64,000 bases of DNA from Vulcanimicrobiales bacterium (GTDB lineage: Bacteria > Vulcanimicrobiota > Vulcanimicrobiia > Vulcanimicrobiales > Vulcanimicrobiaceae): positions 1-64,000 of the forward strand of contig JBBQQR010000007.1 of NCBI GenBank assembly GCA_038215615.1, written 5' to 3'. The position numbers and the translations under genes are program-made. Under the pieces are notes generated by a model, which saw only the letters and a program-made list of their open reading frames with translations, did no database searches and was not told the origin of the DNA. Below are positions 22,487 to 24,356 of the stretch, in pieces. Each line of letters starts with the position of its first letter. Position 1 is the first letter of the stretch.

Positions 22487-22969
22487 TTAGCGCGCGGGAA
22501 CCCTTGTGTCCGCCGTGATACGCAATAGCGTCGCAGCCGCGATTGCAGCATGGTAGCCTTTGTCACCGCGCTTGGGATCCGCACGGAACTCAGCCTGCTC
22601 GAGCGTGTCGGTCGTGAGCACGCCGAATCCAACCGGGACGCCGGTGGTCAGTTGCACGTGCATGATGCCGCGCGCCGCCTCTCCTGCGACGTAATCGAAG
22701 TGCGCCGTTTCCCCGCGCACAACCGCGCCGAGCGCCACGATCGCATCTGCGCCGCCTCCAGAAATCACGGCGCTGGCGGCCAGCGGTAATTCGAAACAGC
22801 CCGCTACTTCGTACGCGCGTATATCTTCTTCACGCACGTTGCATGCGCGCAACGCGCGGCGCGCGCCGGCTTCGAGCCACTGCGCGATCTGCGGATAGAA
22901 GCGCGCGGTAATGATCGCGAAGCGCATCCCGCTGCAGTCGATTGCCTCGGCCGTGCTATTTTTTGTCAT
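22487..22969 (-). CDS. ribH: 6,7-dimethyl-8-ribityllumazine synthase
   Basis: FAIITARF, VAGCFELP, ALGAVVRGETAHFDYV, GVPVGFGVLT, DKG. Confidence 0.95.
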   Translation of the reverse strand: MTKNSTAEAIDCSGMRFAIITARFYPQIAQWLEAGARRALRACNVREEDIRAYEVAGCFELPLAASAVISGGGADAIVALGAVVRGETAHFDYVAGEAARGIMHVQLTTGVPVGFGVLTTDTLEQAEFRADPKRGDKGYHAAIAAATLLRITADTRVPAR

Positions 22970-24356
22970 CCAGCATATGTCCCATTTTGTTGCGCTTCGT
23001 CTGCATGTAGCGGTTGTTGAACGGCGTGCGCTCCGTTTGCAGCGGCACGCGGTCGACAATTTTTAAACCGTAGCCTTCCAGGCCGAAGATTTTGCGCGGA
23101 TTGTTGGTGATGATGCGCATCTCTTTCACGCCCAGATCGGCCAAAATTTGCGAGCCGATCCCGTAGTCGCGTTTGTCGACCGGCAGGCCGAGAGCGATGT
23201 TGGCTTCGACTGTATCGGCGCCTTGGTCTTGCAGTTCGTATGCGCGCAACTTATTGGCAAGCCCAATGCCGCGCCCTTCCTGACGCAGGTACAAGAAGAC
23301 GCCGCGGCCTTGGCCGGCGATAATGCGCATCGCCGCGTCGCGCTGCTCCGCACAGTCGCAGCGGATCGAATGGAGCGCATCGCCCGTCAAGCATTCGGAA
23401 TGCACGCGCACCGCGATATTTTTACCGTCACCGATCTCGCCCATCACCAGCGCAACGTGCGTGTTATTGTCGATGCTGTTTTCATAGGCGTAACCGGTCC
23501 ATTCGCCAAGCGGCGTCGGGAGCTTGAATTCGGCGATGCGGTGCAACAGTTTTTCGGTGCGCCAGCGGTAAGCGATTAAATCTTTGACGGTGATGAGTTT
23601 CAGGTCGTGCTTCTTGGCGAAGGCAATCAAACCATCAAGGCGTTCCATCTTCCCGTCGTCGGCCATGATCTCGCAGATAACGCCGGCCGGATACAATCCC
23701 GCCAAGCGCGCGAGGTCGACCGCAGCCTCGGTTTGCCCGGCGCGCACCAGCACGCCGCCGTCGCGGGCCCGCAGTGGAAATGAATGGCCGGGACGCAGCA
23801 GGTCCGACGGTTTCGTGGCCGGATCGAGCAGCGCCGCGATCGTCGCCGAGCGATCGTGCGCCGATATTCCGGTGGTCGTCCGTCCGCGGGCTTCCACCGA
23901 AACCGTAAAGGCGGTTTCGTGCAGCGCGCTATTTTCGGAGACCATCTGCGGTAAGTGTAGCTCGTCCAAACGTCTGCCGATCACCGGCACGCAGATCAGA
24001 CCGCCCGCGTGTTTACGCATGAAGTTGATCGCCTCGGGCGTCACCATCTGCGCGGCCATCACCAGGTCGCCTTCGTTCTCGCGGTCCTCGTCGTCGAGCA
24101 CGATGACCATCTTGCCGGCGCGGATGTCGCGCACGGCGCCCTCGATGGGATCGAACGGCGAGGACTCCTCGAGCGTGCCGTTGAGTTCCGGCAACACCTG
24201 GGTCAGCCGCTGCAGCGAACGGTAAGACGGCTCGCGCTGCCCGGACCGCAAGTAAGAGATGGCCGCCTCGGTCAGCCCACTCCGGTCGGCCAATTCTGCT
24301 GCGGTGAGGCCTGCTGAGGTCATGGCGGCGTTGAGCTCATCGGCGAAGTTGGTCAC
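22956..24356 (-). CDS. ribBA: Bifunctional DHBP synthase / GTP cyclohydrolase II with N-terminal XRE-family HTH domain
   Basis: [77 protein letters not shown]; N-terminal [32 protein letters not shown] in the same frame. Confidence 0.95.
   Translation of the reverse strand: [466 protein letters not shown]

Follow-up and report, generated by a model that had tools for sequence, protein, structure and literature searches.

A helix-turn-helix domain fused to the riboflavin enzyme RibBA and a conserved palindrome at its promoter in the Vulcanimicrobiales

Control by riboswitches has its textbook example in bacterial riboflavin synthesis. The 64,000-nucleotide stretch of a Vulcanimicrobiales genome analyzed here (the window) encodes the enzyme of the entry steps, RibBA, which carries a predicted DNA-binding domain at its N-terminus. 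The locus raises the question of whether the enzyme could regulate its own synthesis. Public records name the protein simply as a bifunctional enzyme, so that its putative regulatory head is invisible to users of the annotation. All features of the window described below lie on the reverse strand.

An XRE-type domain precedes a complete RibBA enzyme

The HTH-ribBA gene (22956..24356) encodes 466 amino acids from a GTG start to a TAG stop, as established from the open reading frame and Pfam. An initial annotation, made from the DNA alone, had proposed that the ribBA frame runs upstream of RibB without a stop, adding about 62 residues of XRE-type helix-turn-helix (HTH). Indeed, nothing interrupts the frame between 24521 and its stop codon at 22956-22958. 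The solved RibBA of M. tuberculosis (4i14) matches HTH-RibBA from residue 68 on only (E 7.6e-137), so the first ~62-67 residues are a true extension. The proposed HMM search was also positive: within the 466-aa protein, HTH_3 (PF01381) matches residues 11-55 (24192-24326) with 30.6 bits (cut-off 23; E 3.5e-7), and the isolated 69-residue N-terminus scores 35.1 bits. We delimited the XRE/Cro-CI type domain as residues 1-62 (24171..24356). Residues 56-67 (24156..24191), identified from column conservation and the 4i14 alignment, form a variable linker between the HTH and the DHBP synthase. An AF2 monomer model of moderate quality displays the five-helix bundle typical of XRE HTH domains, with helices at residues 4-15, 19-26, 30-38, 45-54 and 56-65. 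The pLDDT is 74-90 over the first 40 residues; the mean of the whole model, 69.7, is mediocre and uninformative on the coupling between domains.

Pfam places the DHBP synthase (RibB; 23568..24140) after the HTH and the GTP cyclohydrolase II (RibA; 23043..23540) last. Both enzyme domains are full length. DHBP_synthase (PF00926) covers residues 73-263 and profile positions 2-191 of 191 with 290.6 bits (292 in the genome-wide search), and GTP_cyclohydro2 (PF00925) covers residues 273-438 and profile positions 2-165 of 165 with 233.1 bits (235.6 genome-wide). The acidic loop and the Cys-rich HSECLTGD...RCDC stretch, which we take to be the RibBA catalytic motifs, align with 4i14. HTH-RibBA is the single match to each of the two profiles in a genome that is 100% complete. 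The same complete genome contains ribD, ribE and ribH, so HTH-RibBA, as its sole RibB and sole RibA, is probably the active enzyme.

Comparison with relatives supports GTG 24356 as the predicted translation start. The homologous codon is ATG or GTG in all 54 fused loci parsed, and many fused relatives have a stop codon 1-4 codons 5' of it. We rejected a longer coding frame reaching to TTG 24521, since it would overlap the conserved promoter described below. Downstream, ribH (lumazine synthase, 22487..22969; Pfam DMRL_synthase, 159.8 bits) begins 14 nt before the end of ribBA and is therefore probably co-transcribed with it. The order ribBA then ribH was found in all relatives examined. Two further riboflavin genes lie upstream, ribD (27755-28849; Pfam RibD_C and deaminase) and ribE (27178-27762; Pfam Lum_binding).

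The fusion is kept throughout the order

To assess how widespread the fusion is, we searched related genomes for the same architecture, as the initial annotation had advised. The HTH is present in 112 of the 116 RibBA-matching genomes of the window's order (f1 and f2), including one unpublished genome (G177), and precomputed annotations list PF01381 in 72 of 73 relatives. A match that lies above the curated Pfam threshold and recurs in more than 100 genomes is neither a chance hit nor an assembly artefact. Far from being absent or decayed among relatives, the fusion is a feature of the order, and judged from these comparisons it is not an accident. In the sister order the HTH is missing (15 of 15). 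The window's order has three unfused lineages: two are nested within the fused clade with 99% SH-aLRT, and the third branches at the base of that clade. No free-standing copy of the HTH was found with this query in 21 unfused genomes (three HTH-less f1 genomes, 14 of f3 and four others of the phylum), and in a set of 77 loci (L004-L080) that represent RibBA in other phyla, none of the long open N-terminal extensions resembled an HTH by eye (the motif regular expression failed on five).

The HTH could be a neutral or decaying relic of a fusion, with no function of its own. Compatible with this reading, RibBA has persisted in three lineages after loss of the HTH, and the sister order never had the domain. 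We consider it highly improbable, however, because the HTH has been kept in 112 of 116 genomes while the RibBA cores of the order diverged by up to about 30%, and because no frameshifted or decayed HTH occurs among the 54 fused loci parsed. Across 44 sequences, 11 HTH residues are invariant (G27, L28, T29, E30, A32, I33, S34, L36, R41, P43 and S44). In 53 fused proteins, the mean column conservation of the recognition helix (residues 29-38) is 0.87, like that of the enzyme domains with their active sites (0.86-0.87), versus 0.48 for linker residues 56-67.

No FMN riboswitch was found in the genome or the phylum

The initial annotation recognized no FMN riboswitch upstream of ribBA or ribD. Searches with RF00050 bear this out: there is no match in the window at the gathering score, none in 22400-29200 even at E<=10, and none in the whole 100%-complete genome. 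Nor was any found in 76 genomes of the phylum, including those of the sister order that lack the HTH; the same search matched seven of 14 control genomes. The phylum is known mostly from metagenomes.

One may expect that the HTH specifically replaced the missing riboswitch, but this idea is not supported. Genomes of the sister order, and those of the remaining phylum, do without both elements, and an HTH is therefore not required in place of a riboswitch.

A conserved palindrome lies on the predicted ribBA promoter

Upstream of the start codon we identified a candidate operator, CGACTTGACA-ac-TGTTAAGTCG (24375..24396), an inverted repeat of 10+2+10 nt with 90% complementarity. Comparison of fused loci reduced it to a conserved core, TTGACAnnTGTnAA (24379-24392). 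Upstream sequence was available for 53 fused loci: 43 of them have the exact core, 50 have it with at most one mismatch, and all 53 with at most two. The core lies 33-38 nt 5' of the start codon in 51 of the 53. The segment that had been suggested as an EMSA target (24370-24400) contains this palindrome.

The left half-site of the palindrome is also a -35 hexamer, TTGACA (24387..24392), read from the sequence and putatively of promoter function. It is followed after 18 nt by a -10-like hexamer, TACGCT (24363..24368), which ends 6 nt before the GTG start. TTGACA is invariant or near-invariant in fused loci, and a TAnnnT hexamer with a spacer of 16-19 nt, ending 5-8 nt before the start codon, is found in 38 of the 53. 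This arrangement predicts a leaderless ribBA mRNA, and a leaderless ribBA-ribH transcript would leave no room for a riboswitch. A simple sigma-70 scan of 22300-25000 returned no promoter; it missed this one because it required four of six matches in the -10 hexamer, which TACGCT fails. The conserved palindrome on the -35 box and spacer of the predicted ribBA promoter is new here.

We next consider how specific the site is to ribBA. In a position weight matrix (PWM) scan of the whole genome the operator is the only strong match (30.7 bits), and the next, unrelated match scores 17.0 bits. That second site (C5:28533) was rejected as part of a regulon, as it lies inside a coding frame of 754 aa. 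A search for the exact pattern in 151 genomes, compared by hand, yielded 107 distinct sites in f1/f2, of which 95 immediately precede ribBA and are mostly the sole site of their genome. The reversed pattern, used as a control, gave 15 strand-hits in total. Judged against the window by itself, such a site is unremarkable, since 10 of 100 shuffles give at least two matches at <=1 mismatch. No operator-like site was found at ribD, either by PWM scans or near ribD in loci with 3-kb flanks, so only ribBA-ribH would be controlled. In the sister order, the exact pattern occurs at nine sites in eight of 32 genomes, none of them at ribBA. We set these aside as unrelated; the two examined adjoin arsR-like genes, as judged by eye.

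The operator-like palindrome co-occurs with the HTH

If the HTH binds the palindrome, the two are expected to occur together. All 52 fused loci compared have the operator-like palindrome, and none of the 17 unfused ribBA loci does (absence being defined as three or more mismatches), a comparison that comprises two independent contrasts on well-supported branches (four on all branches), all of which agree, a number too small for significance in a sign test. One locus (L085) was left out of all locus counts because its ORF was not matched by the motif regular expression; the same genome, as L247, has the site.

The right half-site is gone in all three lineages that lost the HTH. For instance, the unfused locus L127 retains the -35 TTGACA and a -10 TAGCCT and has lost the right half-site. 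The right half-site of fused loci, TGTnAA, varies as little as the -35, and conservation does not extend to the flanking bases. Position 4 of this half-site is free (T, A, C or G), which explains the imperfect symmetry of the palindrome. The left half-site is inseparable from the -35 hexamer.

A further hint comes from residue E42 in the motif G-x-R-E-P. Six of the eight fused proteins in which S or T replaces E42 have a deviant core, versus four of 44 otherwise. This apparent co-variation of protein and site amounts to two or three independent contrasts and is not significant.

Insertion elements of the IS1595 type share the palindrome

Transposase genes of the IS1595 family lie immediately 5' of ribBA in seven relatives (G061, G147, G146, G164, G053, G117 and G219). 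Of six transposase-like ORFs, four have both Zn_ribbon_IS1595 and DDE_Tnp_IS1595 (Pfam), and two truncated ones have one domain each. In the congener G061, an element of 2146 nt occupies the palindrome site of ribBA. The terminal repeats of these IS1595-like elements are ~26 nt long and end in CTTGACA or TGTCAAG, and the elements are bounded by a direct repeat of 11-12 bp, (C)TTGACAnnTGT. Because the target is itself palindromic, two readings of this direct repeat are possible, a target duplication or a portion of the terminal repeats. The usual target duplication of the IS1595 family is 8 bp. In the window, a lone arm resembling such a terminal repeat, CGCGCGTGAGGTATATCGACTTGACA (24387..24412), matches the repeat of the relatives at 21 of 26 positions and has no transposase beside it.

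The palindrome may therefore belong to the element, and part of its conservation could reflect transposon biology, since the elements have that sequence at their ends or duplicate it. It would then be an IS1595-type end, a target site or an end-to-end junction that supplies the -35, and the HTH would act elsewhere or have no role. Besides the seven transposase neighbors and the shared repeat ends, this reading draws on the repeat-like arm GTATATCnnCTTGACA, which is found in 17 of the 53 fused loci (that of the window among them), and on other large palindromes in the genomes of relatives, which are junctions adjoining transposase genes. We nevertheless consider it unlikely. The genome of the window keeps a perfect site, and tblastn found no homologue of the IS1595-like transposase in it. 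In the remaining 36 of the 53 loci the core palindrome stands without any such arm, and two congeners (G043 and G091) display clean empty sites with the core. An invariant TGTnAA amid unconserved flanks points to a host function, as does a right half-site that was lost exactly with the HTH, although at least one such locus retains the -35 and -10. A recognition helix constrained as strongly as the active sites is also hard to reconcile with an idle HTH.

The history of the element itself is a separate matter. Each of five genomes tested has a single full-length match to the element, namely the copy at ribBA. Identities are 65-87% for transposase pairs and 68-89% for RibBA pairs (Spearman 0.37, p 0.10, the pairs being non-independent). 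This divergence would be compatible with long residence as well as with repeated site-specific insertion and does not decide between them. An element placed precisely in a candidate operator is a curiosity in its own right, and it bears on how insertion sequences choose their targets.

A putative autorepressor of the entry steps

We think it probable that HTH-RibBA is a bifunctional riboflavin enzyme whose HTH binds TTGACAnnTGTnAA and represses its own ribBA-ribH promoter. DHBP synthase is a dimer, and the DNA-binding form of HTH-RibBA would probably be a dimer joined through its enzyme part. The half-sites coincide with the -35 hexamer (left) and the promoter spacer (right), so the bound protein would exclude RNA polymerase. 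Repression of the ribBA-ribH transcript would place the two committed steps at the entry to riboflavin synthesis under negative autoregulation. The initial annotation had suggested that RibBA may regulate itself through a functional XRE domain. This suggestion is strengthened by the order-wide fusion, the conserved recognition helix and the palindrome at the enzyme's own promoter (52/52 versus 0/17); the part that is not supported is the specific replacement of a riboswitch.

Binding to the palindrome need not mean simple self-repression. The HTH might activate or position RNA polymerase, or silence the divergent IS1595-like transposase gene. The weak -10 hexamer (TAnnnT, with no match in the sigma-70 scan) is typical of promoters that need help. 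In filled sites the transposase starts 60-70 nt beyond the same palindrome, on the side away from ribBA, and the ribBA copy is the only full-length element in each of the five genomes. These roles seem quite improbable to us, however: a site over the -35 hexamer and spacer is the classic position of a repressor, a perfect TTGACA would not need an activator, and most genomes have no transposase to silence.

An elaboration of the autorepressor reading, which we put forward as tentative and rather doubtful, is that HTH-RibBA senses flux. Ribulose-5-phosphate or GTP in the enzyme's own active sites, or a downstream flavin, would set the grip of the dimer's two HTH heads on the operator, and the single-copy IS1595-like element would home to the operator, rebuild the promoter on insertion and perhaps be silenced by HTH-RibBA as well. 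If this were true, an order of the Vulcanimicrobiota/Eremiobacterota would use protein control at a step where many bacteria use RNA.

Relation to known systems

Taken as an autorepressor, HTH-RibBA is best read, from the present comparisons, as a putative "trigger enzyme" like NadR, BirA or RbkR. A DNA-binding domain and a pathway enzyme are joined in one polypeptide (by Pfam, with both enzyme domains as sole copies), and a conserved candidate site, the palindrome on the -35 of its own ribBA, lies at a pathway promoter. NadR acts on several operons, NAD being its co-repressor, and its HTH is of the XRE type. Like HTH-RibBA, the enterobacterial NadR has an N-terminal HTH followed by two enzymatic domains of a cofactor pathway, and it is a repressor of that pathway. 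It differs in serving NAD synthesis with unrelated enzyme folds, whereas in the riboflavin case only the enzyme's own ribBA-ribH promoter has a site. NadR is listed among the trigger enzymes (PMC5397151). According to the same paper, BirA and PutA also unite an enzyme and a repressor of its own pathway in one polypeptide (PMC5397151), as predicted for HTH-RibBA. Their DNA-binding folds and pathways are unrelated to those of HTH-RibBA, and their ligand logic is established.

In the literature searched, the archaeal RbkR was the only regulator of riboflavin synthesis fused to a pathway enzyme. RbkR combines a riboflavin kinase with a DNA-binding domain, and the rbkR-ribB unit is reported to belong to its own regulon in 36 genomes (PMC5397151). 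On that account the two systems share a riboflavin-pathway enzyme joined to a DNA-binding domain, hosts without FMN riboswitches (reported for RbkR, found here) and autoregulation, frequent in RbkR and proposed for HTH-RibBA. RbkR, however, is described there as a CTP-dependent kinase of the last step, whose own ligands can report flavin status, with a DNA-binding domain of another family and a regulon of many rib and transporter genes. HTH-RibBA is bacterial, acts at the first committed steps, has an XRE-type head and is predicted to control a single operon. It would be a bacterial counterpart of RbkR at the first committed steps, with a concrete candidate target of 22 bp.

XRE-family proteins have been linked to the same pathway in Wolbachia, where wBmxR1 and wBmxR2 are reported as regulators of ribA and of type IV secretion genes (PMC3518464). 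As described there, they resemble HTH-RibBA in acting on a GTP cyclohydrolase II gene, but they are encoded by separate, unfused genes in another regulatory context.

The solved sequences nearest to the HTH are the 434 repressor, SinR, C.BclI, C.AhdI and Aca7, all of them weak matches (E 0.001-0.9). XRE autoregulators (of the 434/lambda type, SinR, the controller C proteins of restriction-modification systems and Aca) bind a short inverted repeat that overlaps the promoter at the -35, a layout also seen in the candidate operator of ribBA. They are small stand-alone proteins with dimerization surfaces of their own, whereas the corresponding module of HTH-RibBA would be an enzyme of 400 residues. 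The search gave no close free-standing relative of the HTH: the best non-fused matches are ~29% identical, short fragment-like proteins being set aside.

A separate fusion of HTH_3 and RibBA, with a different recognition helix, occurs in Chloroflexi-labelled MAGs. A metagenome scan returned no locus of this second family, and several matches to residues 2-130 were rejected as HTH fusions because they are RibA-RibB proteins in reverse order. No description of either HTH-RibBA fusion was found in the literature searched. There have been at least two origins, or spreads, of the architecture (this order and the Chloroflexi-labelled MAGs), which speaks for a general solution and against a mere oddity.

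Domain architecture, start codon and gene neighbourhood

The ribBA open frame runs on the minus strand from 24521 to a stop codon at 22956-22958. Translated from the GTG at 24356, it encodes a protein of 466 residues (HTH-RibBA) with three Pfam domains. HTH_3 (PF01381) matches residues 11-55 with 30.6 bits (curated cut-off 23; E 3.5e-7), DHBP_synthase matches residues 73-263 with 290.6 bits, and GTP_cyclohydro2 matches residues 273-438 with 233.1 bits. The 69 N-terminal residues by themselves scored 35.1 bits for HTH_3. The solved M. tuberculosis RibBA (4i14) aligns only to residues 68-462 (E 7.6e-137), so a normal RibBA is preceded here by an added stretch of about 65 residues. 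The initial annotation had described an XRE helix-turn-helix (HTH) in an extension of about 62 residues ahead of the usual RibB start, followed by both enzyme halves; with all three profiles matched, this observation was correct throughout. The solved structures closest to the addition, all weak matches, were a designed binder, 434 repressor, SinR, C.BclI, C.AhdI and Aca7, and an AlphaFold2 model based on 44 relatives (moderate confidence, mean pLDDT 69.7) contains five helices within residues 4-65.

The frame is open for 55 codons 5' of GTG 24356, and some gene callers choose an in-frame TTG 12 codons upstream as the start (protein P0001). We take GTG 24356 as the probable translation start because the homologous codon is ATG or GTG in 54 of 54 parsed fused relatives, because many of these have a stop codon 1-4 codons before it, and because the stretch 5' of it is conserved at the DNA and not the protein level.

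The window's genome (2.21 Mb, 54 contigs, completeness score 100%) has exactly one match each to PF00926 and PF00925, both in the HTH-ribBA gene, and ribD, ribE and ribH are also encoded within the window. Judged from this gene content, HTH-RibBA is probably the working enzyme. The ribH start lies 14 nt ahead of the ribBA stop codon, and ribH is downstream of ribBA in every relative examined. Upstream lie ribD and ribE, separated from ribBA in the window by three genes (24715-27181, minus strand), one for a 4HBT-type thioesterase and two for zinc dehydrogenases. Several fused relatives have this insert, whole or in part (loci L002, L131, L133 and L148; only the thioesterase gene at L129, L130, L132, L137-L139 and L149), and it is absent in the sister order, whose ribE and ribBA genes are adjacent.

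Distribution and conservation of the fusion

A word-seeded search with residues 1-72 returned 73 proteins at E<=0.001 among 200 candidates, with HTH identities of 58-89%. PF00926 was matched in all 73 and PF01381 in 72; members with a named source come from Eremiobacterota or Vulcanimicrobiota MAGs and are annotated as the bifunctional enzyme only. We then have, from a search of the whole protein against 201 genomes of the phylum, RibBA matches in 116 genomes of the window's family and the second family of its order, the window's own counted. The match ran from residue 1-4 through to the end in 107 of these, and the HTH part was found on a split or truncated gene in 5 others, so that the fusion, for which the initial annotation had proposed a search in related genomes, is carried by 112 of the 116. 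One RibBA is cut inside the linker by a contig end (genome G018), and three genomes lack the HTH (G161, G077 and G144). All 15 genomes of the sister order match only from residue 41-70, with RibBA starting MPLATIEE... directly after ribE in the 14 that were opened, and other families of the phylum likewise match only from about residue 34-70. These counts take in two unpublished genomes, G177 (among the 112) and G127 (among the 15), and the conclusions are independent of both.

A search of unfused genomes yielded no stand-alone copy of the HTH. When residues 1-130 were compared, profile-free, with 1.84 billion representative proteins, only six clusters reached E<=1e-30, all of the HTH-RibBA family. 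Across 53 fused proteins, mean column conservation was 0.87 in the recognition helix (residues 29-38), 0.87 and 0.86 in the DHBP synthase and cyclohydrolase domains, and 0.48 in the linker (residues 56-67); G27, L28, T29, E30, A32, I33, S34, L36, R41, P43 and S44 were invariant in 44 sequences. Such a pattern would be expected if the HTH were a flexibly tethered DNA-reading domain with an unchanging target sequence.

A conserved palindrome on the predicted ribBA promoter

In an alignment of the ribBA 5' regions, the flanks were unrelated between genera except for one near-invariant block, cTTGACA-nn-TGTnAAGt. Of the fused loci, 53 offered 60 nt or more of upstream sequence. An exact core TTGACANNTGTNAA is present in 43 of these, 50 have it with no more than one mismatch, and none of the 53 departs from it by more than two. 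In 51 the first T of the core is 33-38 nt ahead of the start codon, and four loci have the perfect 16-bp palindrome CTTGACAttTGTCAAG. The window's version is CGACTTGACA-ac-TGTTAAGTCG (24396-24375, minus strand; 10+2+10 nt, 90% complementarity).

The left half of the palindrome matches the -35 hexamer perfectly. In 38 of the 53 loci it is followed, after 16-19 nt, by TAnnnT, the usual -10 in GC-rich bacteria, with 5-8 nt left to the start codon (in the window TACGCT, 18 nt past the -35 and 6 nt ahead of the GTG); this promoter was not among the output of a simple sigma-70 scan. Such geometry places the transcription start at or beside the start codon, so the mRNA is predicted to be leaderless, as is common for GTG or ATG starts in some phyla, and to have no 5' leader for a riboswitch. 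The Rfam FMN riboswitch model (RF00050) had no match in the window, in 22400-29200 even at E<=10, or in the window's whole genome, in agreement with the initial annotation, which recognised none at ribBA or ribD. Nor was it matched in any of 76 genomes over eight families of the phylum (14 HTH-less genomes of the sister order included), many of which encode full rib operons; the identical search matched 7 of 14 control genomes. Because the HTH-less genomes sampled likewise yielded no riboswitch, its lack does not set the fused clade apart, and the HTH would be one lineage's solution and not a one-for-one replacement of a riboswitch.

Within the window alone the palindrome is not beyond chance (as many hits in 10 of 100 shuffles, one mismatch allowed), and its evidential weight comes from comparison. 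A weight matrix built from 31 sites gave a single strong site, at 30.7 bits, in the window's whole genome; the best unrelated hit after it (17.0 bits) was set aside as it lies inside a coding frame. We searched 151 genomes of the class, including the unpublished G127 and G210, for the exact pattern. It is present in 96 of 115 genomes of the window's family, in 3 of 3 of the second family and in the window's genome, usually once per genome, and a reversed-pattern control gave 15 strand-hits over all 151 genomes. Directly upstream of ribBA lie 95 of the 107 distinct sites in these two families (places compared by hand, with locus L156 used for G219 and G218 left out). Another 11 sites are elsewhere; of the 8 inspected, 6 adjoin IS1595-type transposase genes and 2 are near a putative Fur-like gene (by reading).

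The exact pattern also occurs in 8 of 32 genomes of the sister order, never at ribBA. Two of its loci, L151 (G133) and L152 (G085), carry the 14-nt pattern as a perfect palindrome at 2501-2514 beside putative ArsR-family genes, which are followed by arsenic-resistance-like genes (both judged by eye). We take this palindrome for an unrelated operator that likewise overlaps a -35.

Association of the palindrome with the HTH

A site within two mismatches was present in all 52 fused loci tested and in none of 17 unfused loci, where the best match within 200 nt had 3-5 mismatches. In a tree of the RibBA core (HTH excluded, 70 rows, quick method, SH-aLRT support only) the sister order falls outside, the unfused genes L126 and L128 of the window's family fall inside the fused clade under a 99% branch, and the unfused L127 is at the base of the fused clade, branching there without support. 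The simplest history suggested by this tree would be one gain and two or three losses of the HTH. The right half-site (TGTnAA) is gone in all three HTH-loss lineages. L127 keeps both its -35 (TTGACA) and its -10 (TAGCCT), with 17 nt between them and 6 nt left to the ATG; thus TGTnAA is dispensable for the promoter as such and goes with the HTH. Independent contrasts between HTH and site number two on well-supported branches and four on all branches; all agree, and they are too few for significance.

RibBA genes that lost the HTH have long terminal branches (L127 of G077, 0.58; L128 of G144, 0.41; median 0.088), with 0.28 for L126, which could reflect faster evolution after the loss or a placement artefact. 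Three divergent fused loci (L144 of G045, L145 of G125, and L212) have a second inverted half-site copy (AACTGTCAAC or similar) 25-45 nt upstream of the main site, so this subclade may have a pair of neighbouring operators. A separate conserved palindrome, TACTTGAAACnnnCGTTTCAAGTA, lies ~50-90 nt upstream of the ribBA -35 at L090, L092, L093, L094, L095, L100, L103 and L003, with no match in the window at <=3 mismatches, and may serve as operator for a divergent gene nearby.

An IS1595-family element at the palindrome in relatives

The palindrome could instead be transposon DNA, since IS1595-type elements and repeat-like arms sit at it in several relatives. A divergent IS1595 transposase gene is immediately upstream of ribBA in G061, G147, G146, G164, G053, G117 and G219, and the few extra palindromes in relatives, which are large and near-perfect (GGTGCnnnAGGTATATCnnCTTGACA-nn-TGTCAAGnnGATATACCTnnnGCACC), adjoin such genes. 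The element, single-copy and ~2.1 kb long, lies exactly within the ribBA palindrome in several relatives (L244 of G061, 2557-4725; L153 of G147, 103-2259; L143 of G053, 181-2441; also L154 of G117 and L156 of G219). Relative to the window, G061 has a 2146-nt insertion with the junctions ...CTTGACAACTGT-element-CTTGACAACTGT-TAAGTC..., and clean empty sites exist in its congeners G043 and G091. On both sides of the element lies the direct repeat (C)TTGACAnnTGT, so that the ribBA promoter is restored on insertion and a complete promoter and palindrome stay beside ribBA.

In five genomes tested, the sole full-length match to the G061 element was the copy at ribBA, the others being short and 68-72% identical; between genomes only the transposase half is conserved. 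Pairwise identities are 65-87% for the transposases and 68-89% for RibBA. Either the element inserts repeatedly into the palindrome, which resembles its own abutted ends, or it has been resident since the clade's origin. The window has a 26-nt terminal-repeat-like arm at 24387-24412 (21 of 26 positions matched), and arms of this kind are present at 17 of the 53 fused loci. The other 36 have the core without an arm, however, the window's genome has a perfect site but no transposase homologue, and the right half-site is lost along with the HTH, all of which argue against the palindrome being transposon DNA.

Two structures lie in the 358 nt that separate the dehydrogenase gene from ribBA, a 15-pair hairpin with a plus-strand T-run (24543-24576) and a 25-nt inverted repeat of 84% complementarity (24589-24639). 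They may terminate transcription of the upstream genes or be further transposon debris.

Proposed autoregulation and known systems

Many XRE repressors are established to block sigma-factor contact from a site over the -35 hexamer and adjacent spacer. Solved structures show DHBP synthase as a homodimer, and 4i14 contains two chains. We propose that each half-site of the candidate operator would receive one HTH head of the enzyme dimer, that HTH-RibBA on the -35 and spacer would exclude sigma contact, and that accumulating enzyme would in this way shut its own promoter. On comparative grounds, HTH-RibBA is most likely an autorepressor of the ribBA-ribH transcript. Neither the weight-matrix scan nor the flanks of relatives revealed an operator-like site at ribD and ribE, so control would fall only on the two entry reactions and lumazine synthase. 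The self-regulating RibBA suggested by the initial annotation thus gains comparative support and a defined 22-bp candidate target, which makes the idea directly testable. A ligand might also modulate binding, as the initial annotation proposed.

The closest functional analogues are the 'trigger enzymes' (PMC5397151), namely NadR, BirA, PutA and, in the riboflavin pathway, RbkR, an archaeal kinase that is also a regulator; HTH-RibBA shares their principle. RbkR is archaeal and a last-step enzyme, whereas HTH-RibBA is bacterial, acts in the first steps, uses another DNA-binding family and has a predicted regulon of one operon. In Wolbachia, free-standing XRE factors are reported to act on ribA (PMC3518464). 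We found no description of an HTH-RibBA fusion in the full-text literature, where coverage of subscription journals is thin and absence is not proven.

Among the hits of the search with residues 1-130, a second fusion family was represented by a fragment, protein P0111, which joins HTH_3 to DHBP synthase with a different head. Its full-length relatives P0224 and P0225 (482-483 aa) contain PF01381, PF00926 and PF00925. The RibBA core of this family is 61% identical to the window's, its recognition helix (RRETVSRWESG) is unlike the window's, and for one member the source label is a Chloroflexi MAG.
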